This document shows positions 1,605-28,128 of a stretch of DNA of 64,000 nt, one piece after another. The stretch is taken from the NCBI GenBank assembly GCA_000004985.1, contig GG738909.1. One strand, given 5' to 3'. The notes under the pieces were generated by a model. That model worked only from the letters and a program-made list of their open reading frames with translations, made no database searches and was not told the DNA's origin. How positions within the stretch are numbered: position 1 is the first letter of the stretch; each line of letters opens with the position of its first letter. Origin of the DNA: Naegleria gruberi. Its lineage: Eukaryota. The position numbers and the translations under genes were made by a program.

Positions 1605-2413
1605 GAGAATTAAGTTGAACCTATGCGATTTTTCACCTTTTGCCAAATGGTTGCGTATCTAGCAAGCCCCCCCAAGAGAACAAAAAACACAGAAATATTG
1701 AGGTAAAACGAGTTGATTATCTCCATTATTTGATAGCAACCAATATTAAAATTATATATCAGCATGTAGCCGTGAACATTTCCTATCTAATGATATATAT
1801 TGATGTATATGAAGTCTTATAAATAATGATGTTTTAAGAGCGCAGATTAATATCCAAACCCAAACCATAGGCACACTCACTCAACGGCACTCAATCTTAA
1901 CCCAAATCATTCAAATGTTGCACAGAGTCCTTAAATGCCGAAAAAGTGTGGTCTCTCAGGTCGTTATTGATACAAGAGACATTAATAAACTTACACCTTT
2001 TATTTTCCTCATCAACAATGAAATTCCTAGCTGACGAATCTTGCATTCTTGCATTCTTCTTTTCTCCAATCATTTACAAGTAAATATCCAAATAATGATA
2101 AAAACCTTCCAAATCCTTAGCTGATTCCAAACATTCAGTAACTACACTAATAATATGATCTGTAAACTGTTTACTCTGTGTAAATCTCAAAAAGTTGTCA
2201 GATTTCAATGACAATCTCTCTAATATTATTATTCAAATTAATCTGTGAGTCACTTTCTTCTCTAAAGAAGGCATCAATAATCATTTGTGATTGTTGAAAC
2301 CTTGTCAGTGGATCTTTCATCTTGTTAAATTCGGCAATTCTTATTAGAAACTCCAAAGATGACAAATTCAATTCTCTCTTTAAAAACTCTTTGGTTGTCA
2401 ATATCGCTTACCA

Positions 2414-2463
2414 NNNNNNNNNNNNNNNNNNNNNNNNNNNNNNNNNNNNNNNNNNNNNNNNNN
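2414..2463. other. Assembly or scaffold gap, exactly 50 N.
   Basis: Run of 50 n characters. Confidence 0.95.
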
Positions 2464-2615
2464 GAAAATGTGAAAATTAGGAAACTTTCGTTAAATCCAA
2501 CTCGAATTATCTTTACTTTCAATCGACTACTATTGAAAATTCATCATTTTACACACTCAAAGCCAATTTTAAAGATTCGTACATTGTAAAACTAACAATT
2601 AATTCCTATGATGAG

Positions 2616-5236
2616 GTGCAATTTGAAAATTCAACAATTTCACAATCAGCATTTAATAGTTTTGGAGGAAATTATTTTCTCCGATCAACCTTGGATAATT
2701 GTGTCATGTTTGTATCTGCTAATGGATTGAATTTTTCAAATTCGAATATAGTTTCGAGTGGAATCACGAGCGAAGCAGGACAAATTTTAATAATTTCGTC
2801 CAATATTGAAAATTCTGGTATGGACATAAGAATTGGATTGAGTGCAGAATTGAGTTATTCAAAATTTGTGAATACTTCATTGAATGTTGTTGGAATGAAT
2901 AGTTTAATACTTGATAATTCTATATTTACAACGAATAGTTCATTATCAATTGTTGGAATATCAAAGGTTAGGATATTTCGTGGTAATTTTTCATATAATT
3001 CGAATGCACTCTCAATGGAATATGTTACATCCATTGAACTGATTGGGTGCAATTTTATTCGAAACTTGAAACCTTTACGAGTGGTGAATCGACCAAAAGT
3101 TACAACTGGATCTAATATATTGAAAGTAGATTCATGTCTCTTCGTAGAGAATACAGCACAATATGGTGGAGCTATTTATTCAGAGTTTACCACAATTATT
3201 TCCACCAATAATCGATACATTTCGAATAAGGCAGCCAATGGAGGTGCAATCTATGTGAAAAGCACAACATTTATTGACTCTTACTCCACCTTAGATTCCA
3301 ATCAAGCAATTTTAGGTTTATTTGACTGTAACAATCCAGAAGAATGTGGAAATGGAGGGGCTGTTTATTCTGTTGATGGGTATGGCCAATTTGTTAGTCA
3401 ATCAGTCATAAATGGAAATCAAGCAGTGAAAGGTGGCATTTGCTTTAATAGATGTATTTTTTCAGCTTCTTTATTGATGAGTAACAATAGAGCAAGCTAT
3501 TCAGGAAGTGATATTTTCTTTAAAGAGATTCCACCTGAATTTCGTAATGCAATTCCTTTAAGATATAAATCGAACGGGCTTGGAAGTAGAGAATTAATTG
3601 GAGTGAAATGGAGAATTATGACAGATAGAGAATCATTATTTGATTCGAATGAATATCACATCATTTCCGTCTATCCTGGAAAGACAATATCCATAGAGTT
3701 TACTTCCTTAATTGACATTTTCAATAATACATTGGAAAGTTCTCAAATTGCTCCCTCCATTTCTTTGCTATCAAGTGGTGGATATAATATTGTTACAAAT
3801 CCCTTTGATGTAAATAGCAATACATTTTTGAATGTTTATGTACAGGCACCCAATGATAGAATGGAACATATCCTCAATGCAAGTGTTGCGTTTTCTGATA
3901 GAGATTTTACATTCGAATTTGGGATACGTGTTGAAAGGTGTCCTTTCGACTATGCATTCGATAGCTCAACCAATGTATGCACCTTTAGGAGTCATACAGC
4001 TATAATACTTGCAGTAGTGTTTGGTGTTCTTATTCTCTTTATATTTATGGGAGTTGGCTTGGTGTCATGTGTGAAAATTACACAAGCTTTGGTCAAGCTC
4101 TATAAAAGAGAAAAGAAGGAGAAGAGAATTGCACACAAATTGATTGATAAGCAATTTATATTTGGAGATGAATCACCACTTCTTATCAATTTACTCGCCA
4201 AAAATGTGAACAACATTATCATTCCAATTGAGGACATTGAAATTGTCAAAAGAATTGGTGAAGGATCCATGGGTACAGTCTACATGGCTAGTTGGAATGG
4301 AATTACTGTAGCTCTGAAGAGTATCAAGACAGATAGTTTTGACATTTCAGAAGATGAATTTGAACATGAAGCATCTCTTCTTAATAGTTTGAGACATCCC
4401 TCCATTGTGAGATTTTACGGAGTTTCCCTTTCTAATACTAACAAATACATGGTTGTTGAATATTTGGAGAATGGTAGTTTGGATGCTATTATTGCTCAAT
4501 CAAAATGTGGAAGAAGAACTCTAGATTTGAAAAGTAAGATAGAAATTCTGAAAGGAATTGCGAGTGGAATGGATTATTTGCATTCCCTTAAACCTAGATC
4601 TCTCATTCACAGGTAAGTTCTAAAATTATTGTATGGTAAAGAACCACAATTCATGAATTTAGAGATTTAAAACCTGGAAATATTCTATTAGATTCAGATA
4701 TGAAACCTAAAGTTTGCGATTTTGGATTATCCAAAATGACTTCCAACTCTGGAAGCTCAACAATGACAATGAATCTTGGAACAATTTTTTACATGGCTCC
4801 AGAAATTATTGGAAGTGGATACGAAATTGGAAGCTCATTGGATGTCTACAGCTATAGTATGATCATGTATGAATTATTCTTTGAGGAAAAACCTTATTCA
4901 CCAACATATTCTACCAAAATGACAAAATTCTCCCCCAATAGTTCTTTAGACAGTTCCAGAGATTCCCAACAATTTGCATTTTCCATTCCATTAAAAGTGT
5001 TAAAATGTGAGAGACCAAATATACCTTGGAATAATTCACAAGAATTCGAAGGTTGGATTGATGAATTTGTAAAACCATACCAAAGTAGTAGTAGTAGTGG
5101 TGGTGGATTGAATCACTCTGGAGTATGTTCTGAATATATTGAATTGATGCAACAATGTTGGGATCAAGTACCATCCAATAGACCAAACTTCAAGGAAATT
5201 GGCCAACAATTAAACAACATGCTAAGCAGTTTATGA
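2616..5236 (+). CDS. Receptor-like tyrosine-kinase-like (TKL) protein kinase. The extracellular region has chlamydial polymorphic-membrane-protein (Pmp)-type repeats, followed by one transmembrane helix and a cytoplasmic kinase domain. There are two exons, 2616-4612 and 4663-5236, with a 50-nt intron at 4613-4662 (GTAAGT...TAG). The 5' end is unresolved.
   Basis: GGAIYS, GGAIYV, GGAVYS and GGICFN motifs with FxxN spacing, as in Pmp repeats. The TM segment is AIILAVVFGVLILFIFMGVGLV. The kinase shows GEGSMGTVY, a VALK lysine, HRDLKPGNILL (split by the intron after IHR, with an AG|A Arg codon across the junction), DFGLS and YMAPE. No in-frame ATG or signal peptide lies upstream of codon 31 back to the stop at 2478-2480. 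The 50-N gap sits ~150 bp upstream. Confidence 0.8.
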
Positions 5237-5362: not shown

Positions 5363-6074
5363 TTGAGAAATGCGATTACAATCTTTTCCAATAATAACAA
5401 GAAAAATAAAAATAACATAAATAAAAAAATGCATCAACATACCGACTTGAATCTTGAGGATTTAATTACTCTATTCGAAAAGAGTGAAAATGATGCAAAT
5501 TTAGAACCCGAACAAATATTTAAATTAATAGAGGAAATTGGTGATAGACGAAAATAATACACAGAAGGAATTTGAATGGAGACTCAAAGGAGCTGAGAAA
5601 GGCTGTGTTAAATTTCAATCAATTATCGGAAGGATGTATGTTGAAGGTAATGGAGTGGAAGAGAATTTGGAAAAGGCTTTTTATTGGATTAAAAAAGCTG
5701 CCGAAGGTGAAGATTCGGATTATCAAATACTTCTTGGTTGGTTATATGAAACAGGAAGAGTTGAAGAAAATCAAGAGATGTCATTATATTGGTATAAAAA
5801 AGCTGCTGATAATGGATCTATGGATGCAATTTATAGATGTGGAAATGTTTATTACTTGGATGACGATTATTCCAATGCATTGAATTGGTTTTGGAAAGGA
5901 GATGCATTAGGAGATGCTCAATCAATGGAAAAAATTGGATTAATGTATAGATATGGCTTTGGATTAAACCAAGATTTGCTAATTAAACCTATATTGCATT
6001 GTTTAATTTATTTCAGTAATAGTATTAAGAAAGATTTCCAATATTCTGAAACAATTGGTTACATTTTAGTTTAA
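5363..6074 (+). CDS. Sel1-repeat (TPR-like) protein. The Sel1 repeats are encoded by the 5538-6074 frame. The upstream ORF 5363-5557 is in frame +2 and overlaps it by 20 nt. The two are probably joined by a frameshift or a tiny intron near 5540-5565, or the gene starts at an internal ATG (5633).
   Basis: At least three Sel1 repeats are visible: GxGVEENLEKAFYWIKKAAEG, LGWLYETGRVEENQEMSLYWYKKAADNG and YRCGNVYY...ALNWFWKG. The first repeat begins before any in-frame ATG of the 5538 frame. Confidence 0.55.
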
Positions 6075-14662: not shown

Positions 14663-16771
14663 ATGTCTTCAAAACAAATCGATAAATATCCAAGGTTCTT
14701 GAAAACAACTCATCCACCTCCAAACTCATCGGGATTGATGGAATCAAATCCTGAGAAGCCATTATCCAAGCTAAAGATTGAATATATTCATGGATGCTCA
14801 AAGAAGGGTTGTTATGGAAACGTGTTTCATGTTGATGATGAACAGCATTTAGTCTATCCTGCTGCTGGTTGTGGGGTAGTGCTTAATGTTGAGGATAACA
14901 CTCAAAAGGTATTCTGCAAGCATGATGATGATGTTGTTGCTTTGGCTAAACAGTATGTTGTTGATATCAAATTGTTATATTATTGACACCCTATTATTAA
15001 CAACAGTCCAAATGGTAGATACTTTGCTTCGGGGCAAATGGGAAAGGACGATATGATTTACATTTGGGACAGTCACCAACCTGAGGCAGGTCCAATTAAG
15101 GCACTCAAAACAAACACCCAATTCAAAAATGGAGGTGTGTTAACTTGTTGCTTTTCAACCGAAGGATCCTTACTAGCCTGTGTTGGTGGTAGTCCTAAAA
15201 TGAACATTATTTTAATTTATGATTGGAATAAGGGAACATGTCTTGCCAATGTGAAAGGAACTAATGAGGAAGTATATGCTTTATGTTTTTCAAAAGATGA
15301 CAATAATTTGTACTTGTGTGGAAAGAATACTTTTAAATATTATGCAGTCTCTAATTTGCAATCGAAAAATTGTGTTTTCAGACCAAAAGGATCAATTCAA
15401 AATGTTTATTGCATTTGTTTGGACGATAATGGAAACGCTGTGGTGGGAGTTGAGGATGGGAGTATTTACATTTTCACTGGAAATAATATTGTTCATGCTC
15501 ACGAGCAGGCTCACACTGGAGCTGTATATTCGGTGTCAAGATTTAGAAATGGTTTTGTTTCGGGAGGAAAGGACGGTGTTGTCAAGTTTTGGAGTTTTTC
15601 AAAGAATAATCAAATTACAGAAACATCCTCTGTACAAGTGGGATCAGCTGTTAAAAATGTTGCTTCAAACGAATCAGGAGATATTGTGTTTGTTTCGAAA
15701 TCAAATGGTGATTTAGAGCGAATTCTCAACAAGTCCACTAATACTCTCATTTCTTTATCTCATTTTGGTAATCATTTGAAGGAATTATGGGGATTAGCCA
15801 CATTCAAGAACAGCTCTCTTTTCGCAACTGCATCTGATGATGGCAGAGTCATTGTGTGGGATACTGAAACAAGAAAGCACATTTCACAGGTGAGAGTGAC
15901 AAGTTTGGAATTGAGAGCTGTGGCAGTTTCTCCAGATCATTTCCACATTGCAACCACAACAAAGGAGGGATCCCTGTTTGTCCTCAGATTTTCAAAGAAT
16001 AAGATATTCGAGGATCCAATAGTTAACAGAAAGGATTCTATTGAAGAGATTGCTGCTTTGCAGTATTCACATGATGGTTCATTGCTGGTGGCTGGAAGTC
16101 ATGATAATTACGTCTATGTATATGATGTCAAGAAGGGATATAATTTGATAGGAAAGCTGAAAGGCCATTCATCATTTGTTAAGCATATTGATATTTCCAA
16201 AGATAATCAATACATAAGGAGTAACAGTGGAGATTATGAGATTTTGTTGTGGGATATTCCTTCAATGGCTCAATCAATGAATCCAAACATTGAGGACATT
16301 CAATGGCAAACCAATAATTGTACCCTTGGTTATAATGTTCGAGGAATATGGAAATCAGATATGGATGGATCAGATATTAACAGTGTTGATGTTGACTTGT
16401 CTAAAAAACTTGTTGTGGTTGGAACTGACAACTGCCAAGTCAGTCTTTACAATTATCCATGCTCGACAATTGGAGCCAAAGATGTCTCTTATATTGGACA
16501 TTGTAGCCATGTAACTGCTGTCAAATTCTCTGTTAACAATAAGATACTTTCCTGTGGAGGTGGCGATCTGACAACCATTCAGTGGTGTCTTGATAATTGC
16601 TCTGGCTCCTCTGTAGTAATGACCTTCAAAAGTGAAGAAAGGGAGCTTGAATCTGTTTCTGTGGAAGAAAAGAGCCACATTGGCTCTCAACCAAACAGTC
16701 TTGTTTACCATCCACCTCAAAAGGAATCAACACCGAAAAAACCATTCTTTAAACGTTGTGAAATACTTTAA
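14663..16771 (+). CDS. Echinoderm-microtubule-associated-protein-like (EMAP/EML) protein with a HELP motif and a WD40 beta-propeller. Two exons, 14663-14952 and 15007-16771, with a 54-nt intron at 14953-15006 (GTATGT...CAG).
   Basis: KLKIEYIHGCSKKGCYGNVFHVDDEQHLVYPAAGCGVVLNVEDNTQKVFCKHDDDVVALAK|HPNGRYFASGQMGKDDMIYIWD aligns with the EML HELP region (KLKLEWVYGYRGRDCRANVY...LAIHPDKIRIATGQ). Multiple WD-like blades follow. Confidence 0.75.
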
Positions 16772-17114: not shown

Positions 17115-19031
17115 ATGCCTTTTGCAATTCATCATCACTATGAAAGTAATCCTAAAAAGAGGAGAAGGAAGAATAGTAAAAAGAAGAATCATCAAGAATA
17201 CAACAAACATACTCTTCCGATACAAAAGCAAACACACCATTCACAACAACAAGTTGGTGTTTTACCAGTTACTGCTAGTGAACCTAGTTTTGGAAGTATG
17301 GAAGATGAAGAAATAGAAATGGATAATATTAACAGCAAAACTAAACATCTGCATGGTACTAAATCGTGGTGTTCCAACGAATTGGCTATGGCTGAACAGG
17401 AGGAAGAGGATTTCACTGTGGAAAATGGAGCTTCATTGAATAGAATACCATCATTTCATCCAAAACAAAAACAGATTCCTGGAAAACTTTCAATGAAGAG
17501 TTCAGTTTCACTCTCGGAATTGAGAAAGGAGCACTCAGCCATCTCTCATGATACTCTAGTAGTGGATTCATCAAATAGAGAATCTTTGGATATGACCAGT
17601 TTGGTAGGACAGCATTCAGACACTGTCAATCTTCTTGGTTTTGGAAGTAAGACGAGTATGGATCAGCCTTACTCTGATGAAGGACATCACACCGATGGTG
17701 AATCAGTTAGTACTGTTCATCACTATTCATCCTCACCAAAATCAATTTGGATCAATATCAAAAGTATTTACAAAGCACTCTTACCACACATTTTACTCAT
17801 TAGTAATTTGGTTTTATTTGGTGGTTTCTACTTGTTATCACCACATGCCATGAAGATTTTCAGACCTATCATTTTTGGAGTTTTCAGAGTTGGAATTATG
17901 ATCATTTGCATGTTTCCAGTAATGCTCTATTTTGATAGAAGTTATTCATTTAGAAACGAGAAAAAATTGAGAAGAAGAAAGGAAGAATATTCTATTCTTG
18001 TTTCCTCAAAAAGAGATTCCCTACTTTACTATTATTACCAAGCTAATTATTATTTATTTTATGCCAACCCAATTGTGGATTATGCATTGAGGAAAATTCC
18101 AAAGTGGAAACAAACCAAAACTTTAACATGGTGTGGAATTTTCATTATTTTGAATCAAATCACTTTCCTGACAGGATATTATTTAACCAATGCTACCGTG
18201 AGTAGCTCACTTTCACCTTGCACAAGTGTTATTACTTGTATACTTTCCATGTTGTTGGGTAGAGAACCAAAGTCGATATTGAAATTGGTTGGTGTCATTA
18301 CCTCAGTTATGGGTGCTATTGCCATGATTATTTTAACAGCCTTGCTGAAAGAAAAATCTTTCACAACCCTTATTCCAGACACTTCAACAATTGAGGATCC
18401 AACTCACTATCACTGGAATATTTATCATCCAGGTCAAATTCAATCAAGTGATTCTGGCTCTATTGGAATAGGATTTGTTTTGGGACTTTTATTCTTATTA
18501 TTGAGTACACTGGTCAATTCATTGTACTTGCTCACCCAAAAGAAACTCCTGAACAATAATGTTCCTCCTATTACTGTCACATTTTGGTCCTTCTTCTATG
18601 GATACGGTGTACTCTTATTTGTTGGATGTTTCTTCTTACCAATCAACTTTAGTAAGGTTGATTTAATGTCTGCAGTTGGATTAATTTATGCTGGTTTACC
18701 ATTCGGTGCTGTACAATTCATTTTCCAAACAAAAGCTTCCTCAATGAGTACACCAACCATTGTAGGTCTCTATTCCACAATGTCACCAATGGTTGGATTA
18801 ATCACTGGCTTGACATTCTTAGGAGAAAAGACAAGTCCATTCGTCGTCTTGGGTGGTATCTTTATTATTATGGGAGTCATTATTGTTATTGTTGCCAGAT
18901 ATAAGGAAACTCATATCAAGAAACAAGAGGAACTTCACAATACAGATTCAGAATCAGTTTCCTCACTCGAGTTGCCAAACATTAATAGTTTGGAATTGGT
19001 TGACTCGGAAGAAAGATTGAATAAAGTTTAA
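17115..19031 (+). CDS. Multi-pass membrane protein of the drug/metabolite-transporter (EamA/SLC35-like) type. It has a ~290-aa hydrophilic, basic, Ser-rich N-terminal extension.
   Basis: About 10 predicted TM helices in the C-terminal 350 aa. EamA-like stretches are LSPCTSVITCILSMLLGREPKSILKLVGVITSVMGAIAMI and TIVGLYSTMSPMVGLITGLTFLGEKTSPFVVLGGIFIIMGVIIV. ATG start at 17115. Confidence 0.5.
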   Translation: MPFAIHHHYESNPKKRRRKNSKKKNHQEYNKHTLPIQKQTHHSQQQVGVLPVTASEPSFGSMEDEEIEMDNINSKTKHLHGTKSWCSNELAMAEQEEEDFTVENGASLNRIPSFHPKQKQIPGKLSMKSSVSLSELRKEHSAISHDTLVVDSSNRESLDMTSLVGQHSDTVNLLGFGSKTSMDQPYSDEGHHTDGESVSTVHHYSSSPKSIWINIKSIYKALLPHILLISNLVLFGGFYLLSPHAMKIFRPIIFGVFRVGIMIICMFPVMLYFDRSYSFRNEKKLRRRKEEYSILVSSKRDSLLYYYYQANYYLFYANPIVDYALRKIPKWKQTKTLTWCGIFIILNQITFLTGYYLTNATVSSSLSPCTSVITCILSMLLGREPKSILKLVGVITSVMGAIAMIILTALLKEKSFTTLIPDTSTIEDPTHYHWNIYHPGQIQSSDSGSIGIGFVLGLLFLLLSTLVNSLYLLTQKKLLNNNVPPITVTFWSFFYGYGVLLFVGCFFLPINFSKVDLMSAVGLIYAGLPFGAVQFIFQTKASSMSTPTIVGLYSTMSPMVGLITGLTFLGEKTSPFVVLGGIFIIMGVIIVIVARYKETHIKKQEELHNTDSESVSSLELPNINSLELVDSEERLNKV

Positions 19032-20611: not shown

Positions 20612-21757
20612 ATGTCTCTAAACCTAACAGATCTTTACACTCAAATTCCAAATTCCATTCCGTTGATCACTCTACCTGATCATGATCCTAACAAGACGGC
20701 AAAATCATCTTCCGAAGATTTATTCGAAAGTACTGCTTCCTTTGCACAATCTTTTAATCCTCATACGGAAATGGAACAAGCCAAGGAATTTTTCAATGAA
20801 TGGGGATTTGTTGTATTCAATTCAATTCTCAATCAAGAGCAAATCAACAATTCCATTTCTGATATTTTTACATATTTGGAATCTGGTCATTACAATGCAA
20901 GTTATACGAAAGATTTCATGAAAGATCCATTGGATCTTCCAAAGAGCAATGTCTCTCATCTCGATAAGTCAACTTGGACCAATAAGAATTGGCCAGCCAT
21001 GAAAGAAGAAGGAATTCTTGGCTCACCTCCAGTGTTTACAAAACAAGCAATGGAAAATAGAGAAAATGAGAATGTCTATCATGCATTTAAAGAAATAATT
21101 GGAAATGAGGATTTGTGGGTTTCGATGGATAGATATGGATTCTTTAGACCTACTGTTGAAAATGAAGAATGGAAATCTAGAAGAAATATTCATTTGGATA
21201 GAAATCCTTGGAATTATGTTTACAACAAGAATCCAATTGAGGAATCCTTCCCAAGGGAGTATTATTTCTTACCAGAATTTTGTGGAGAATTCAATGAAGG
21301 AGGAAATTATAAGGATGGTATTGTCAAAGTTCAGGGTTTGATTAATTTTGTGGATAATAGAGCTCAGGACGGAGGTTTTATTATTGTGCCAAAGTTTAAT
21401 AAGATTTTTAAGGAATGGACTCAATTGACAAGAAATACACTTGCCAATAAGTATGTAGACTCATCATTTGTGGTACTTTCAAGACAAGAAAAGGAATTAT
21501 TTAATAAGGCAGTCAGAATTCCACTCAAGGCAGGCGACATGTTGATTTGGGACATTTGTATGCCTCATGGATCAGCTCCAAATGAAAGTGATAGATATAG
21601 ATTGTGTCAATTCTTGAAAATGTTCCCAAGTTACAAGCCAACCACTAAACAAGGTAACAGTTCATTGGAAATAAGACGAAAGATTATCAGAAAGGCATTA
21701 GAACGTTATAGAATGAATCCAACTCCACTCGGAAACAAACTTTTCGGTCTCGAATAA
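20612..21757 (+). CDS. Phytanoyl-CoA dioxygenase (PhyH)-like 2-oxoglutarate/Fe(II) oxygenase family protein.
   Basis: An HxD motif (NIHLDRNPWNY) and a distal His (DICMPHGSAPNESDRYR) are spaced as in the PhyH family. Single-exon ORF with an ATG in an A-rich context. Confidence 0.5.
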   Translation: MSLNLTDLYTQIPNSIPLITLPDHDPNKTAKSSSEDLFESTASFAQSFNPHTEMEQAKEFFNEWGFVVFNSILNQEQINNSISDIFTYLESGHYNASYTKDFMKDPLDLPKSNVSHLDKSTWTNKNWPAMKEEGILGSPPVFTKQAMENRENENVYHAFKEIIGNEDLWVSMDRYGFFRPTVENEEWKSRRNIHLDRNPWNYVYNKNPIEESFPREYYFLPEFCGEFNEGGNYKDGIVKVQGLINFVDNRAQDGGFIIVPKFNKIFKEWTQLTRNTLANKYVDSSFVVLSRQEKELFNKAVRIPLKAGDMLIWDICMPHGSAPNESDRYRLCQFLKMFPSYKPTTKQGNSSLEIRRKIIRKALERYRMNPTPLGNKLFGLE

Positions 21758-23894: not shown

Positions 23895-26336
23895 ATGCTG
23901 GGAGAACAAACACTCATCAAGAAGGGTCATAGGCAAAATCATCAAATGACTGCCGTTCGTAAGAATCCCCTTCGAATCAACAACCCAAAATCACCCTCAA
24001 TAAGAAGTCCTTTGGAAATGGGCTCAGTTGAATTGGGAGCAACATCAACTTTAAATAATTCTAGTGGTATTTCACCTACACACAAGAAACATGCACTAGT
24101 TGTTAGTGGAATAGAAGGAGGATCAAGTCGCCCTAATAGTTCCCTTCCAATACCTCCAACTACTAACAAAAACTCTGTAACATCCCTCAACAAATTTACC
24201 TCACTTACACCCCCAGTTAACAAAACTCATAGTTTATTCTCAGATGCTGATATTCAATCAAGAAACAATTCTAGACCATCATCTGCAACTTCTACAAAGG
24301 GAAGAAAAGTGATAAATGAGCTCGTTGGACTTCCAAACCTTGCTCAACAGGTATCTTCAATAGTTGAACCCAACATCATGTCTCCCACAAATGCTGACAG
24401 AGAATCTATAACAACAACAAGAAACTTGAGATCAAGTTTTGGTGCTAGCAGACCTCCATCTGCTAAATTAGGTATTTCTAACACTCACGTGGCTTCCACA
24501 TCAACAATTTCGCCCGCACACCATAACCAACCTTCAACTACAACATTCCAAACCTCTACTAATAATATTAATACTTCTCAGACAATCAATAATACTAATA
24601 ATAATAGCCACCTTAATGAGGAAAAGTTACCTCACGTAAGACCAACCTCAGTTAAGAAGAGTACCTTCACTGAATCAACAACGACAAATAATCACCACCC
24701 AACGACAAATCATGCTTCTTCTACAGCAGCTCTCCACGAAATACCTTCCCAAATCACCACCCAGCAAACAACTACGAGATCATCTAGTCTTAAATCCGAC
24801 TCATCCCCTGTTATTACTCCTTCCACACCAGAATCATCATCACTTTCCTACTTTAAAATTAAAAAAGTTCAAAGAGGCAAAGGTGTCAACGACAAAAAAC
24901 CACTAAAAGTTCCAATCGTACCAAAGACAAGAGAACTTAAACTTGAGAATGGTGGATTTTTGAACGATCTTCAAGCTACTACTCTAACTAATGAAAAGGA
25001 TGAAGAGGATGACTTACAAATTCTAACAAAGAACATTGCTCATCACCGTAATAGCAATCAGCACCTAATTGAGGAATCACCTGTTACTCCAATAACACCA
25101 AATTCACCTGAGCTTTCCTTTACCCCTGTAATTGAGAATAGGAAAAAACCACTCAAATTTACTGATAGAGACATTTCGAGAATTAATGACTATACAGAGT
25201 TAACACCACCTCCACAAAATAACAATAAGGATAGAATACCAACACCGGTGCTCAAGGTTCAAGAGGATGAGGATACACCCAAGGATATACCAGAAGAACA
25301 AGAGTCTCCAGAGGCAACTCGAGAGACAATGAGACAACTCAAGTTGTTAGAAATCTTCCCTAATGGACTTGATTCACAAAATAAGAAGATTAAGTATCAA
25401 CAACATAATGATATGGACATGTCATATAAGGAAGTTATTTCTGAATTGAAAGTTTTAACTAGTAGAGTTTCAATGCTGAGGAGGAATGAACAAGGAAGAA
25501 AAAACAGCTTTAAAAATGTTTACAATTTCCAAAATGATTCACTAGCAATGGATGATATCAATAATGTGGAAATTGAAAAGATGGAAAAGAGAATGAGAAG
25601 GTTGAATTATTACCGAAAGATTATGACTGCAGGTCTTGCTGGATGGAAGGAATATAAAACTGAAAGGGATTCATATGTTGCTTTGAGGAGAAGCAGCCTA
25701 GTTGAAGAACAAGGTTTTGATGAAATGAGCAAGGAGGATGAAGTTGTTGAAATCCGAAGATTCGACGATGAATACAGAAGATTTAAGCAGAGACTCAACC
25801 CAGAAATTTCTACCAAAGTGGCTAAGGCTATTGAACAAGTGGATCCACAGTCAGCTGCTATGAGTATTTTGGAAAATATGGTACTCAGTAAATCAGAAAA
25901 GATAAAGACTGAAGAAGATAAACAATTACAAAAGGAAAAGCTCACAGCAGAAATTATTCGATGGAAGAGCAGATGGTCACCCTTCGGAACACCTAGCATG
26001 TCAAGAACGACGTCTATTCTTTCATCTCTCGAAGGAAAAAGTGAGAGCATTGATATTGCAGATGCCGATGAGGTATTTGATGTGGAAGATGTCTCATATG
26101 AGGAAAAGGAGGAAGCTCAATCAGAAGATGATGAATCAGACGATGAGGGCGATTTTGAAATCATTATTTTGAATGACTTGCAAACTGAAGATGATGGATT
26201 CTTCCTCACTTCAACCATGAATGAAAATGAAGAAACTGAGGAAAAGATGTTAAATCAAGTAGATCCAAGAAAACTACTGAAAGCCATCGTTGCAGCCTCA
26301 AGAAAACCAGTTTCCAAAGCACAAAGCAAGGCCTAA
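23895..26336 (+). CDS. An 813-aa S/T/N/E-rich low-complexity protein. It is very likely the N-terminal part of the downstream kinase gene (see next feature).
   Basis: ATG at 23895. The ORF ends at 26336 but overlaps the open kinase frame, which starts at 26281 in a +1 frame, by 56 nt. No GT-AG intron that would rejoin them is visible. Confidence 0.55.
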   Translation: MLGEQTLIKKGHRQNHQMTAVRKNPLRINNPKSPSIRSPLEMGSVELGATSTLNNSSGISPTHKKHALVVSGIEGGSSRPNSSLPIPPTTNKNSVTSLNKFTSLTPPVNKTHSLFSDADIQSRNNSRPSSATSTKGRKVINELVGLPNLAQQVSSIVEPNIMSPTNADRESITTTRNLRSSFGASRPPSAKLGISNTHVASTSTISPAHHNQPSTTTFQTSTNNINTSQTINNTNNNSHLNEEKLPHVRPTSVKKSTFTESTTTNNHHPTTNHASSTAALHEIPSQITTQQTTTRSSSLKSDSSPVITPSTPESSSLSYFKIKKVQRGKGVNDKKPLKVPIVPKTRELKLENGGFLNDLQATTLTNEKDEEDDLQILTKNIAHHRNSNQHLIEESPVTPITPNSPELSFTPVIENRKKPLKFTDRDISRINDYTELTPPPQNNNKDRIPTPVLKVQEDEDTPKDIPEEQESPEATRETMRQLKLLEIFPNGLDSQNKKIKYQQHNDMDMSYKEVISELKVLTSRVSMLRRNEQGRKNSFKNVYNFQNDSLAMDDINNVEIEKMEKRMRRLNYYRKIMTAGLAGWKEYKTERDSYVALRRSSLVEEQGFDEMSKEDEVVEIRRFDDEYRRFKQRLNPEISTKVAKAIEQVDPQSAAMSILENMVLSKSEKIKTEEDKQLQKEKLTAEIIRWKSRWSPFGTPSMSRTTSILSSLEGKSESIDIADADEVFDVEDVSYEEKEEAQSEDDESDDEGDFEIIILNDLQTEDDGFFLTSTMNENEETEEKMLNQVDPRKLLKAIVAASRKPVSKAQSKA

Positions 26337-28128
26337 TCTACTTTCTCCCAATACAACCACCCCTCAACACACCAACACTACTACTGATACTACTGCTACT
26401 GCAACAACCACTAGTGGTACCAACACATCCAACCAAACAACCCTACCACCAATCCAATCTTCTCAGTCATCTCAAAACCTTCTTAATCCGAGTGAAGATG
26501 AATTTATTGTAAAGGTTAGTTTGCGAGAATCAAGAGCCATGTCTCAAAGAAATCTTTCCAGATACAATGGAAAAGAAGGAAAGGAAATGGACGATGCTCC
26601 TCAATCAAAACCAGCATTGGAATTACCAAGACTCGATTTTGATACTCCTAAACCACCAGCTTCCCCAACGGACATGATAAGAAGATCAAGGGAGATGGCT
26701 CTCAAAGAGGATATGGATCTTTTTCATCATGGCCAAAAGAATTACATGGATGATGACGACGACATGGCTATGATTAACTCTATTGAGGAACAAAATACAT
26801 TCATGACTGACAGTATTGACCAGAATGGAACTATTGATTGGAAGAAGGAAGCAGGTATGATGAAACAACGTCAAAGAAGAAATAGTGTCGATATGCCTGT
26901 AGTTGAAGAAGAAGAAGATATGGTCTTAATGAATGAAGATGAAGAAAAGAATCCTTCAGAGGAGGTTATTGCAGAGCAACTTACCTTTATGGAGGAAGAG
27001 ACACCAACCAATACAGACAAACAAAAGTTCCAATTCAACCAATTATTGCAACACCTTAATTCTGAAGTAGAATATAGTGACAAGACTAAAAAGAAGAAGA
27101 AAAAGAAGCACAAGAACAAGGACCACGATAGAATTCAATCACCAAGGGTAAGAGAAAACAGAGAAGAATCAGATGTCATTGAAGAGGATCCAAGTATGAC
27201 TATCACGACAGATCAACAACTATCACTCCAACCAAATGACGGCGCTAAGGTTATCATTGAATTGGATGAACTCTTAGGTATAGGAGCTCACGGTAAAGTT
27301 TACAAGGGATTCATTCCAAATTATATTACAAATACTAAGGATCCAGTTGCTATCAAAAAGTTGAGTGTCAAGGCAGGAAGATTCTCCAAAAAGTTCATCA
27401 AGTTAGAAGTGGACATTCTCAAACAATTATATCACCCATATCTTGTACAATATCTAGGTTGTAAATATAGCTCCAAACTTAAAGAGTACAGCATTGTGCT
27501 CGAGTATGTCGACGGAGGAACACTTGAACATTTTATCAAAACTTCTGGCCCAATGGATGAAAGGACGGTCAGTGTTGTTGTTTCTCAGGTACTTATGGGT
27601 CTTGAATACTTACACTCAAAGAGAATTATTCACAGAGACTTGAAACCAGCCAATATTTTGATTAGTGGTAAGGGTGTTGTAAAGATTACAGATTTTGGTG
27701 TCAGTGCCCAATTATTGAATATTGAAGCTATTAGAACTAGTTGTGTTGGTACACCTCACTATTCTGCTCCTGAAGTTATCATGGTCAAACCGTATAGTTT
27801 CACTGCAGATATCTGGTCTCTGGGCTGTGTTGTTTTCGAATTACTATTTGGAAAGAGACCATACGATGAATTCAATCAAGTTGCTGCCATGTATCACATG
27901 GTCAAAGACGACAAACCACCAATGCCAACTCCAAACAATTTGAGTCCAGTCTGTTTAGATTTTATTGATAAGTGTTGGACCAAGGATTGGAAGAAGAGAC
28001 CTACCGCAAGAGAATTGCAAACCCATCCCTTTGTAAACAACAATGAACATGTTATTCAAAAGTTTGTGAAGAACATGAGACAGTCCCTTATAATGCCTAA
28101 TAACCTCCTTTCTCAACAAACTAATTAA
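26290..28128 (+). CDS. STE-group (STE11/MAP3K-like) serine/threonine protein kinase. The catalytic domain lies in the C-terminal 300 aa and is preceded by T-rich and acidic low-complexity sequence.
   Basis: LGIGAHGKVYKG, AIKK, HRDLKPANILI, DFGVSAQL and GTPHYSAPEV. The frame is open from 26281 (the upstream stop is at 26278-26280), and the first in-frame ATG is at 26536. It probably forms one ~1400-aa gene with 23895-26336. Confidence 0.8.
   Translation: MQPQENQFPKHKARPNLLSPNTTTPQHTNTTTDTTATATTTSGTNTSNQTTLPPIQSSQSSQNLLNPSEDEFIVKVSLRESRAMSQRNLSRYNGKEGKEMDDAPQSKPALELPRLDFDTPKPPASPTDMIRRSREMALKEDMDLFHHGQKNYMDDDDDMAMINSIEEQNTFMTDSIDQNGTIDWKKEAGMMKQRQRRNSVDMPVVEEEEDMVLMNEDEEKNPSEEVIAEQLTFMEEETPTNTDKQKFQFNQLLQHLNSEVEYSDKTKKKKKKKHKNKDHDRIQSPRVRENREESDVIEEDPSMTITTDQQLSLQPNDGAKVIIELDELLGIGAHGKVYKGFIPNYITNTKDPVAIKKLSVKAGRFSKKFIKLEVDILKQLYHPYLVQYLGCKYSSKLKEYSIVLEYVDGGTLEHFIKTSGPMDERTVSVVVSQVLMGLEYLHSKRIIHRDLKPANILISGKGVVKITDFGVSAQLLNIEAIRTSCVGTPHYSAPEVIMVKPYSFTADIWSLGCVVFELLFGKRPYDEFNQVAAMYHMVKDDKPPMPTPNNLSPVCLDFIDKCWTKDWKKRPTARELQTHPFVNNNEHVIQKFVKNMRQSLIMPNNLLSQQTN

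Follow-up and report, generated by a model that had tools for sequence, protein, structure and literature searches.

Gene model and intron

We analyzed a 64,000-nucleotide stretch of Naegleria gruberi DNA (the window; assembly GCA_000004985.1, contig GG738909.1). Counting from the telomeric repeats of this scaffold, the first gene encodes a receptor-like protein kinase whose ectodomain carries repeats of the type known from the polymorphic membrane proteins (Pmp) of Chlamydia. We read the locus as a genuine N. gruberi gene without a detected paralogue. It would encode a type I receptor-like TKL Ser/Thr kinase with a beta-helix ectodomain, and its 5' end is missing at an assembly gap. We assign this reading a probability of about 0.75.

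In our revised gene model, the coding sequence comprises 2481-4612 and 4663-5236 on the plus strand, to which all features of the gene belong, and the spliced product has 901 residues. The 5'-incomplete exon A (2481-4612, 2132 nt) encodes the beta-helix, a stalk, a transmembrane (TM) helix, a juxtamembrane region, and the kinase N-lobe up to HR|D. It is followed by a spliceosomal GT-AG intron of 50 nt (4613-4662, GTAAGT...TTTAG), which interrupts the Arg codon of the HRD motif. Exon B (4663-5236) encodes the kinase C-lobe with a lineage-specific insert. Removal of the intron restores IHRDLKPGNILL (...SLIHR|DLKPGNILL...), and the frame is then open to the TGA stop at 5234-5236. The sequence of the orthologue from Willaertia magna is unbroken across the intron site, validating the N. 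gruberi splice.

The public N. gruberi protein from this locus (XP_002670975.1, EFC38231.1, NAEGRDRAFT_73913, UniProt D2VXZ4) is 100% identical to our full-length translation. The entry XP_002670975.1, titled "predicted protein [Naegleria gruberi]" and placed on a 250-kb scaffold, has 636 residues encoded by 2706-4616. It starts at an internal Met at 2706, 75 codons inside the conserved open frame, and ends with ...SLIHR. The kinase C-lobe at 4663-5236 is left unannotated because the public model runs into the intron. The 75 codons upstream of Met 2706 are clearly coding; homology to the Willaertia protein begins at residue 32 (nt 2574), before the annotated Met.

The GC content of the gene is 0.33, compared with 0.35 for the window. 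The native AT-rich composition, together with the spliceosomal intron and the eukaryotic orthologue, rules out contamination or a bacterial origin of the locus.

Beta-helix ectodomain with Pmp-type repeats

The ectodomain consists of about 15 rungs, the last 4-5 of which carry the FxxN...GGA[IV] signature of the Pfam family PF02415 (Chlam_PMP). The right-handed parallel beta-helix occupies 2481-3530 (residues 1-350, roughly 14-15 rungs), and the Pmp-type rungs, four units and one degenerate unit, occupy 3123-3518 (residues 215-346). The four [FYI]xxN-x4-7-GG[AI] units, FVEN-x4-GGAI, YISN-x4-GGAI, FDCN-x7-GGAV, and INGN-x4-GGIC, lie within residues 221-321, and the degenerate fifth unit comes after the last of them. 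They contain three canonical GGA[IV] motifs (residues 229, 254, and 292) and one GGIC (residue 318). The other roughly ten rungs present only an FxxN- or FxNS-like Asn ladder. The motif GGA[ILV] was observed three times against 0.021 expected, and none of 20,000 shuffles reached the observed motif count. The cluster of GGA and FxxN motifs is far beyond chance. The original prediction had described the ectodomain as built from GGA[IV]-FxxN repeats; the motifs are indeed present, but four units are too few to make up the domain. The Pmp-type signal is thus real but small.

Profile and homology searches place these repeats in a broad family. The TIGR01376 (POMP_repeat) model scores 19.5 bits against a cutoff of 15 with the N. 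gruberi protein, and the kinase model also matches. PF02415, with a gathering score of 20.6, reaches only 18.3 bits when the N. gruberi protein is searched alone, and Beta_helix is not detected in it. For this protein by itself, the profile results are borderline. An exhaustive HMMER search against 1.84 billion representatives (E ≤ 1e-3) returned 419 matches, almost all confined to residues ~205-350. The identity of the ectodomain matches is 30-40% and is limited to the repeat motifs. Only one relative in this search, KAL9648292.1 of W. magna, spans the whole ectodomain. Nearly all relatives listed in a word-indexed search carry PF02415. The question of the Pmp repeat is settled by the homology searches, since they retrieve PF02415 proteins. 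The relatives with a named source come from Lentisphaeria, Alphaproteobacteria, Endomicrobium, Planctomycetes, Methanobrevibacter, Sphaeroforma, and Nannochloris, and none is chlamydial.

A search of PDB sequences with the ectodomain gave no match at E ≤ 1. AlphaFold2 (AF2), run with a two-sequence alignment, predicts a beta-helix with three strands per rung. The predicted local distance difference test score (pLDDT) is mostly 70-88 over residues ~120-270, with block means of 52-88 across residues 100-340. With a deeper alignment, the pLDDT over residues 180-350 is mostly 84-98, except for one 10-residue block at 69. On these models, we regard the predicted beta-helix fold as a solid assignment.

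Naegleria hosts chlamydial symbionts, and Chlamydiae commonly live inside amoebae. These facts count in favor of a recent horizontal acquisition of the ectodomain from Chlamydiae, in which case it would work as a Pmp-like adhesin. The spacing of the motifs points the same way: GGA and the FxxN-like motif that follows are 13-14 residues apart, which is the relaxed Pmp pattern of Chlamydia, and chlamydial Pmp, which are type V autotransporters, likewise form an extracellular beta-helix with FxxN-x4-5-GGA[ILV] and a GGA-to-FxxN distance of ~13-14 residues (PMC11166332). Of the features of the chlamydial Pmp family, the regularly spaced repeat motifs and the beta-helical passenger are both found in the N. 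gruberi protein.

However, PF02415 is mostly non-chlamydial, with Chlamydia making up less than one third of its UniProt carriers and ~200 carriers being non-bacterial (PMC11166332). Besides the lack of a chlamydial source among the named matches and the restriction of their 30-40% identity to the repeat motifs, the native composition, the intron, and the Willaertia orthologue argue against a recent transfer. The Pmp proteins of C. trachomatis average 6.5 GGA and 13.6 FxxN motifs, whereas the N. gruberi protein has only 3-5 units. It also has neither the Pmp middle domain (Pmp_M; PF07548, no Pfam match at E ≤ 10) nor the autotransporter beta-barrel translocator (PF03797, no Pfam match); its C-terminal half is an alpha-helical TM anchor fused to a kinase. 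The absence of these two domains in Pfam searches rules out its identification as a chlamydial Pmp. A chlamydial transfer is therefore very improbable. The homology to chlamydial Pmp amounts to sharing the widespread PF02415 repeat and does not point to Chlamydia specifically; the chlamydial link drawn in the original prediction is not upheld.

The side chains of the conserved Pmp motif point into the core of the helix, where they have a structural role (PMC11166332). FxxN and GGA are thus structural core residues and not a ligand site, and the motifs alone do not imply a chlamydia-like adhesion.

We also considered that the beta-helix is a membrane-tethered carbohydrate-active enzyme, such as a lyase, a glycosidase, or an epimerase, and that the kinase regulates or reports its activity instead of being part of a classical ligand-gated receptor. 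The ectodomain does match such enzymes structurally, but its identity to them is 7-13%, too low for these matches to transfer any specific function. There is no match to a Pfam catalytic family, no catalytic residues can be mapped, and the sequence relatives are PF02415 repeat proteins of the adhesin or surface type. We consider a tethered enzyme improbable and favor a beta-helix that serves as the ectodomain of a receptor-like kinase.

Stalk, TM helix, and kinase domain

The beta-helix is followed by a stalk of ~155 residues, one TM helix, a conserved juxtamembrane segment, and a kinase that, judged by its motifs, is catalytically complete. The layout of ectodomain, TM helix, and TKL kinase named in the original prediction is confirmed.

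The membrane-proximal stalk (3531-3995, residues 351-505) is beta-rich and is conserved only with Willaertia. It has no match in Pfam or among PDB sequences and no confident AF2 fold, the pLDDT being 30-45. A metagenome scan with the stalk, TM helix, and juxtamembrane region found no relative. The V[FY]PG...CP..YA motifs of the stalk are shared between Naegleria and Willaertia.

The single TM helix (3996-4073, residues 506-531) is the sole strongly hydrophobic segment of the protein, with a Kyte-Doolittle maximum of 3.12 in a 19-residue window, and AF2 also predicts a helix here. The basic stretch KLYKREKKEKR comes next, which puts the positive charge on the cytoplasmic side. Eight N-x-S/T sequons and nine Cys residues lie on the N-terminal side of the helix. 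Taken together, the helix, the basic stretch, and the N-terminal sequons and Cys residues indicate a type I topology.

The kinase domain (4236-5206, residues 586-892, interrupted by the intron) matches Pfam Pkinase with an E value of 3e-53 (residues 587-892) and PK_Tyr_Ser-Thr with an E value of 1e-50. It contains the full set of catalytic motifs (GEGSMG, VALK, HRDLKPGN, DFG, and APE). Its best-scoring PDB entries are CTR1 (1e-38), TNNI3K, ZAK/MLT, TAK1, and B-Raf, all of which are TKL or TK kinases. Because these are its best solved relatives, we place the kinase in the TKL group, and the HRDLKPGN motif indicates Ser/Thr specificity. The insert in the C-lobe is lineage-specific and is common to N. 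gruberi and Willaertia.

Orthologue in Willaertia magna

The protein KAL9648292.1 of W. magna is encoded on JBEGDK010000107.1 (locus L001, 9764-13030). Its public model is wrong: after '...TDSYK' it is spliced into unrelated sequence and not to the kinase exon at L001:12239-13030. In addition, the same open reading frame (ORF) has an ATG 79 codons before the annotated Met, and translation from there yields a typical signal peptide, MDYSSRTAFLLFFLFSLCLNNHC, followed by a Cys-rich cap. The gene rebuilt from ORFs encodes 1067 residues. A reverse-transcriptase ORF (RVT_1, L001 16096-16665) lies ~1.6 kb past the annotated end of the Willaertia gene and ~3 kb beyond its corrected stop codon (L001:13030), making a retroelement a neighbor of the gene.

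The rebuilt protein aligns with residues 32-894 of the N. gruberi protein at 34% identity (E 3e-125). The alignment takes in the stalk, the TM helix, the juxtamembrane motif IDKxxIFGD..PLL, and the entire kinase. The Willaertia ectodomain exceeds the Pfam gathering scores of both Beta_helix (37.7 vs 25.9) and Chlam_PMP (30 vs 20.6). The receptor architecture is thus conserved between two vahlkampfiid genera. Being common to Naegleria and Willaertia, it is older than the split between them.

The 5' end of the gene

The original prediction held that the 5' end of the gene is not settled; this stands, and most probably reflects an artefact of the assembly. The open frame starts at 2481, directly after an in-frame TAG at 2478-2480, and a 50-N gap (2414-2463) lies upstream. 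The gene-bearing contig starts at 2464; the gap is therefore 17 nt from the open frame, and not 150 bp upstream of it as had been stated. The frame does open without an ATG, but its earliest in-frame ATG, at 2706, is codon 76; the codon number 31 given before is obtained only by counting from the GTG at 2616.

Where the BLAST alignment begins, the Willaertia orthologue is longer by 138 N-terminal residues. Since the contig begins 17 nt before the open frame and after the gap, we infer that ~95-140 N-terminal residues, comprising a signal peptide and a Cys-rich cap, are missing from the N. gruberi protein. The gap would accordingly hide an estimated 95-140 codons and probably also an intron. 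The in-frame TAG is preceded by ...AAAATTAG, which is a possible 3' splice site; the intron at 4613-4662 ends with ...AATTTAG.

A tblastn search of the whole 64-kb window with the N-terminal 140 residues of the Willaertia protein gave only noise (E ≥ 1), indicating that the missing exon lies outside the assembled sequence. Its location in unassembled sequence is the simplest reading. The unique contig between the second telomeric array and the gap (1605-2413, 809 bp) contains no long ORF in six-frame translation.

An ORF at 2359-2589 had been put forward as the missing first exon. It exists only through Ns translated as X across a gap of uncertain true length. Its ATG-initiated part, an 18-codon ORF at 2359-2412 (MTNSILSLKTLWLSISLT), is weakly hydrophobic, with a maximal 9-residue hydropathy of 1.49 vs 2.84 for the Willaertia signal peptide. 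Neither 2359-2412 nor 2359-2589 has any similarity to the N-terminus of the orthologue, and neither is supported as exon 1.

The missing 5' end could also mean that the gene is a 5'-truncated relic, in which a breakage or rearrangement by the telomere removed the signal-peptide exon and left no functional receptor. The lack of an ATG before codon 76, the in-frame TAG, the telomeric arrays within 0.9-2.5 kb, and the fragmented local assembly are all consistent with such an event, as are the failure to match the N-terminus of the orthologue anywhere in the window and the lack of a detected orthologue in other Naegleria species. On the other hand, 901 codons are open, the canonical intron is intact, and every catalytic motif is kept. 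Moreover, the point of truncation coincides exactly with the contig edge and the N-gap, as in an assembly artefact, and the sequence that directly precedes the frame could well serve as a splice acceptor. We therefore consider a relic unlikely and prefer an intact gene with an unassembled first exon.

Chromosome-end context

The window starts with an outer telomeric array of (CCCAAA)n on the plus strand (1-470; Tandem Repeats Finder (TRF) period 6, 78.7 copies, 97% matches, with a few degenerate units). A second (CCCAAA)n array lies in the same orientation at 1164-1604 (TRF period 6, 73.8 copies). Between the two arrays lie 643 bp of unique, AT-rich DNA and a scaffold gap of 50 Ns (1114-1163), which separates the outer telomere-bearing contig from the second array. 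The second array is either interstitial or placed there by scaffolding that wrongly joined two contigs from chromosome ends. The sole blastn match between the unique pieces 471-1113 and 1605-2413 is a 39-bp inverted match of 85% identity. Degenerate units (CCGAAA, AAGCC, CCCGGA, and ACGGGA) occur in the first ~200 bp and at 1187-1193.

The gene is the one nearest to the telomeric repeats of the scaffold, and its product is a surface-exposed repeat protein. It might thus be thought to be part of a subtelomeric family of contingency or variant surface genes, as found in many parasitic protists, and the original prediction had hinted at such a family. However, the window contains no second copy of the ectodomain, and neither two word-indexed searches of protein databases nor the exhaustive search of representatives found an N. 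gruberi paralogue. The 90% cluster of D2VXZ4 has a single member. The Willaertia gene is located mid-contig (49.8 kb), and the 24.5 kb retrieved around it (about 10 kb on each side) are free of telomere repeats. In N. gruberi, the adjacency to the telomere itself rests on a scaffold join, as the link from the telomere contig to the gene crosses an N-gap. A contingency family is thus hardly credible, and the gene is best described as a receptor-like kinase gene without a detected paralogue.

The next gene downstream (5429-6074) encodes Sel1 repeats (PF08238, E 6e-17), probably with a short first exon at 5429-5557. A second, unrelated protein kinase gene (26290-28128, Pkinase E 6e-68) lacks a Pmp-like ectodomain, and its product is only 32% identical to the kinase domain of the receptor. 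Further ordinary genes near the chromosome end include one for an EML-like double beta-propeller protein (15038-16771; Beta-prop_EML_2 E 2e-102; echinoderm microtubule-associated protein), one for an EamA transporter (17115-19031), and one for a PhyH dioxygenase (20612-21757). With the EML-like, EamA, and PhyH genes close by, this chromosome end is neither gene-poor nor reserved for gene families.

Comparison with known systems

The closest eukaryotic analogues of the N. gruberi protein are the Pmp-like TM proteins of trichomonads (TvPmp). These single-pass membrane proteins bear a Pmp-like ectodomain and an endocytic tail, and they raise adhesion (PMC6701047, PMC3749517). TvPmp and the N. gruberi protein are both eukaryotic type I membrane proteins with extracellular FxxN and GGA[ILV] repeats, and in both a single TM helix close to the C-terminus of the ectodomain takes the place of the bacterial middle and autotransporter domains. 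They differ in their cytoplasmic parts. TvPmp have a short tail with NPx[FY], acidic endocytic motifs, and ATPITK, whereas the tail of the N. gruberi protein is a 370-residue juxtamembrane segment plus TKL kinase, with no NPx[FY] or ATPITK motif in the protein. TvPmp also form an expanded family, with 48 members in T. vaginalis, in contrast to the N. gruberi gene without a detected paralogue. The original prediction had called the ectodomain unusual for a eukaryotic receptor kinase. This is true of its fusion to a kinase, but a Pmp-like ectodomain on a eukaryotic single-pass protein has a precedent in the trichomonads (PMC6701047).

In its order of ectodomain, single TM helix, juxtamembrane region, and kinase, the protein resembles the TKL receptor-like kinases, namely the plant RLK/Pelle kinases and their Raf-like relatives, the receptor-like TKL kinases of Dictyostelium, and the TMKs of Entamoeba. 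These have LRR, lectin, malectin, EGF, or CXXC ectodomains, whereas that of the N. gruberi protein is a pectin-lyase-like beta-helix. Our literature search found no description of a beta-helix or Pmp-repeat ectodomain on a receptor kinase, and nothing relevant on Naegleria with Pmp, TKL or transmembrane kinases, or telomeres.

Among the 150 best relatives of the ectodomain, a kinase is present in only two, the Willaertia orthologue and P0158, a protein from a Logan contig. As an example of the bacterial eukaryote-like Ser/Thr kinases that have extracellular repeat sensors, P0158 combines a kinase and beta-helix-like repeats in one polypeptide. However, its kinase is N-terminal and its repeats are C-terminal, its Pkinase domain has a bacterial layout, and it has no PF02415 match; it is not orthologous. 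As far as can be seen, the beta-helix receptor kinase is limited to Naegleria and Willaertia.

Discussion

Several observations weigh against a genuine and functional receptor-like kinase gene. No signal peptide or initiator ATG is demonstrable in N. gruberi itself, and the TAG directly before the open frame means that either an unseen intron or a sequencing error at the contig end must be assumed. The stalk has no fold assignment. In the N. gruberi protein alone, PF02415 stays below its gathering score, and the Beta_helix and NosD-type models of Pfam give no match to the ectodomain itself. Finally, no other Naegleria protein was among the matches of any protein database search, and no orthologue from N. 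fowleri or N. lovaniensis was found in them, so the gene may be dispensable.

If the gene is functional, the beta-helix would bind an extracellular polymer or surface. A glycan is the most plausible ligand, because solved beta-helices are overwhelmingly carbohydrate-binding, carbohydrate-active, or adhesins. Alternatively, the beta-helix may self-associate. By analogy with other single-pass receptor kinases, binding could shift the oligomeric state of the protein and so switch on the cytoplasmic kinase. The evidence fits a role on phagosomal or vesicular membranes equally well.

In practical terms, our analysis corrects two public gene models, XP_002670975.1 (its 5' end and kinase C-lobe) and KAL9648292.1 (its signal peptide and 3' splice), and flags a doubtful scaffold end with two telomeric arrays. 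The finding opens no long-standing question and holds nothing mechanistically surprising, being a modest ectodomain variant of the receptor-like kinases. It also presents the "chlamydial" Pmp repeat once more as a generic rung motif of beta-helices.

The protein adds the beta-helix with Pmp repeats to the range of ectodomains of eukaryotic receptor-like kinases, and it does so in the Heterolobosea, a lineage whose surface receptors are almost unstudied. A bolder and rather doubtful idea is that the Naegleria and Willaertia proteins are founding members of a group of heterolobosean pattern-recognition receptor kinases, in which a bacterial-type beta-helix senses polysaccharides of prey or environment and signals through a TKL kinase. 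If so, the carbohydrate-sensing logic of plant receptor-like kinases would have been invented independently in Discoba, possibly from a horizontally acquired module of bacterial surface proteins.

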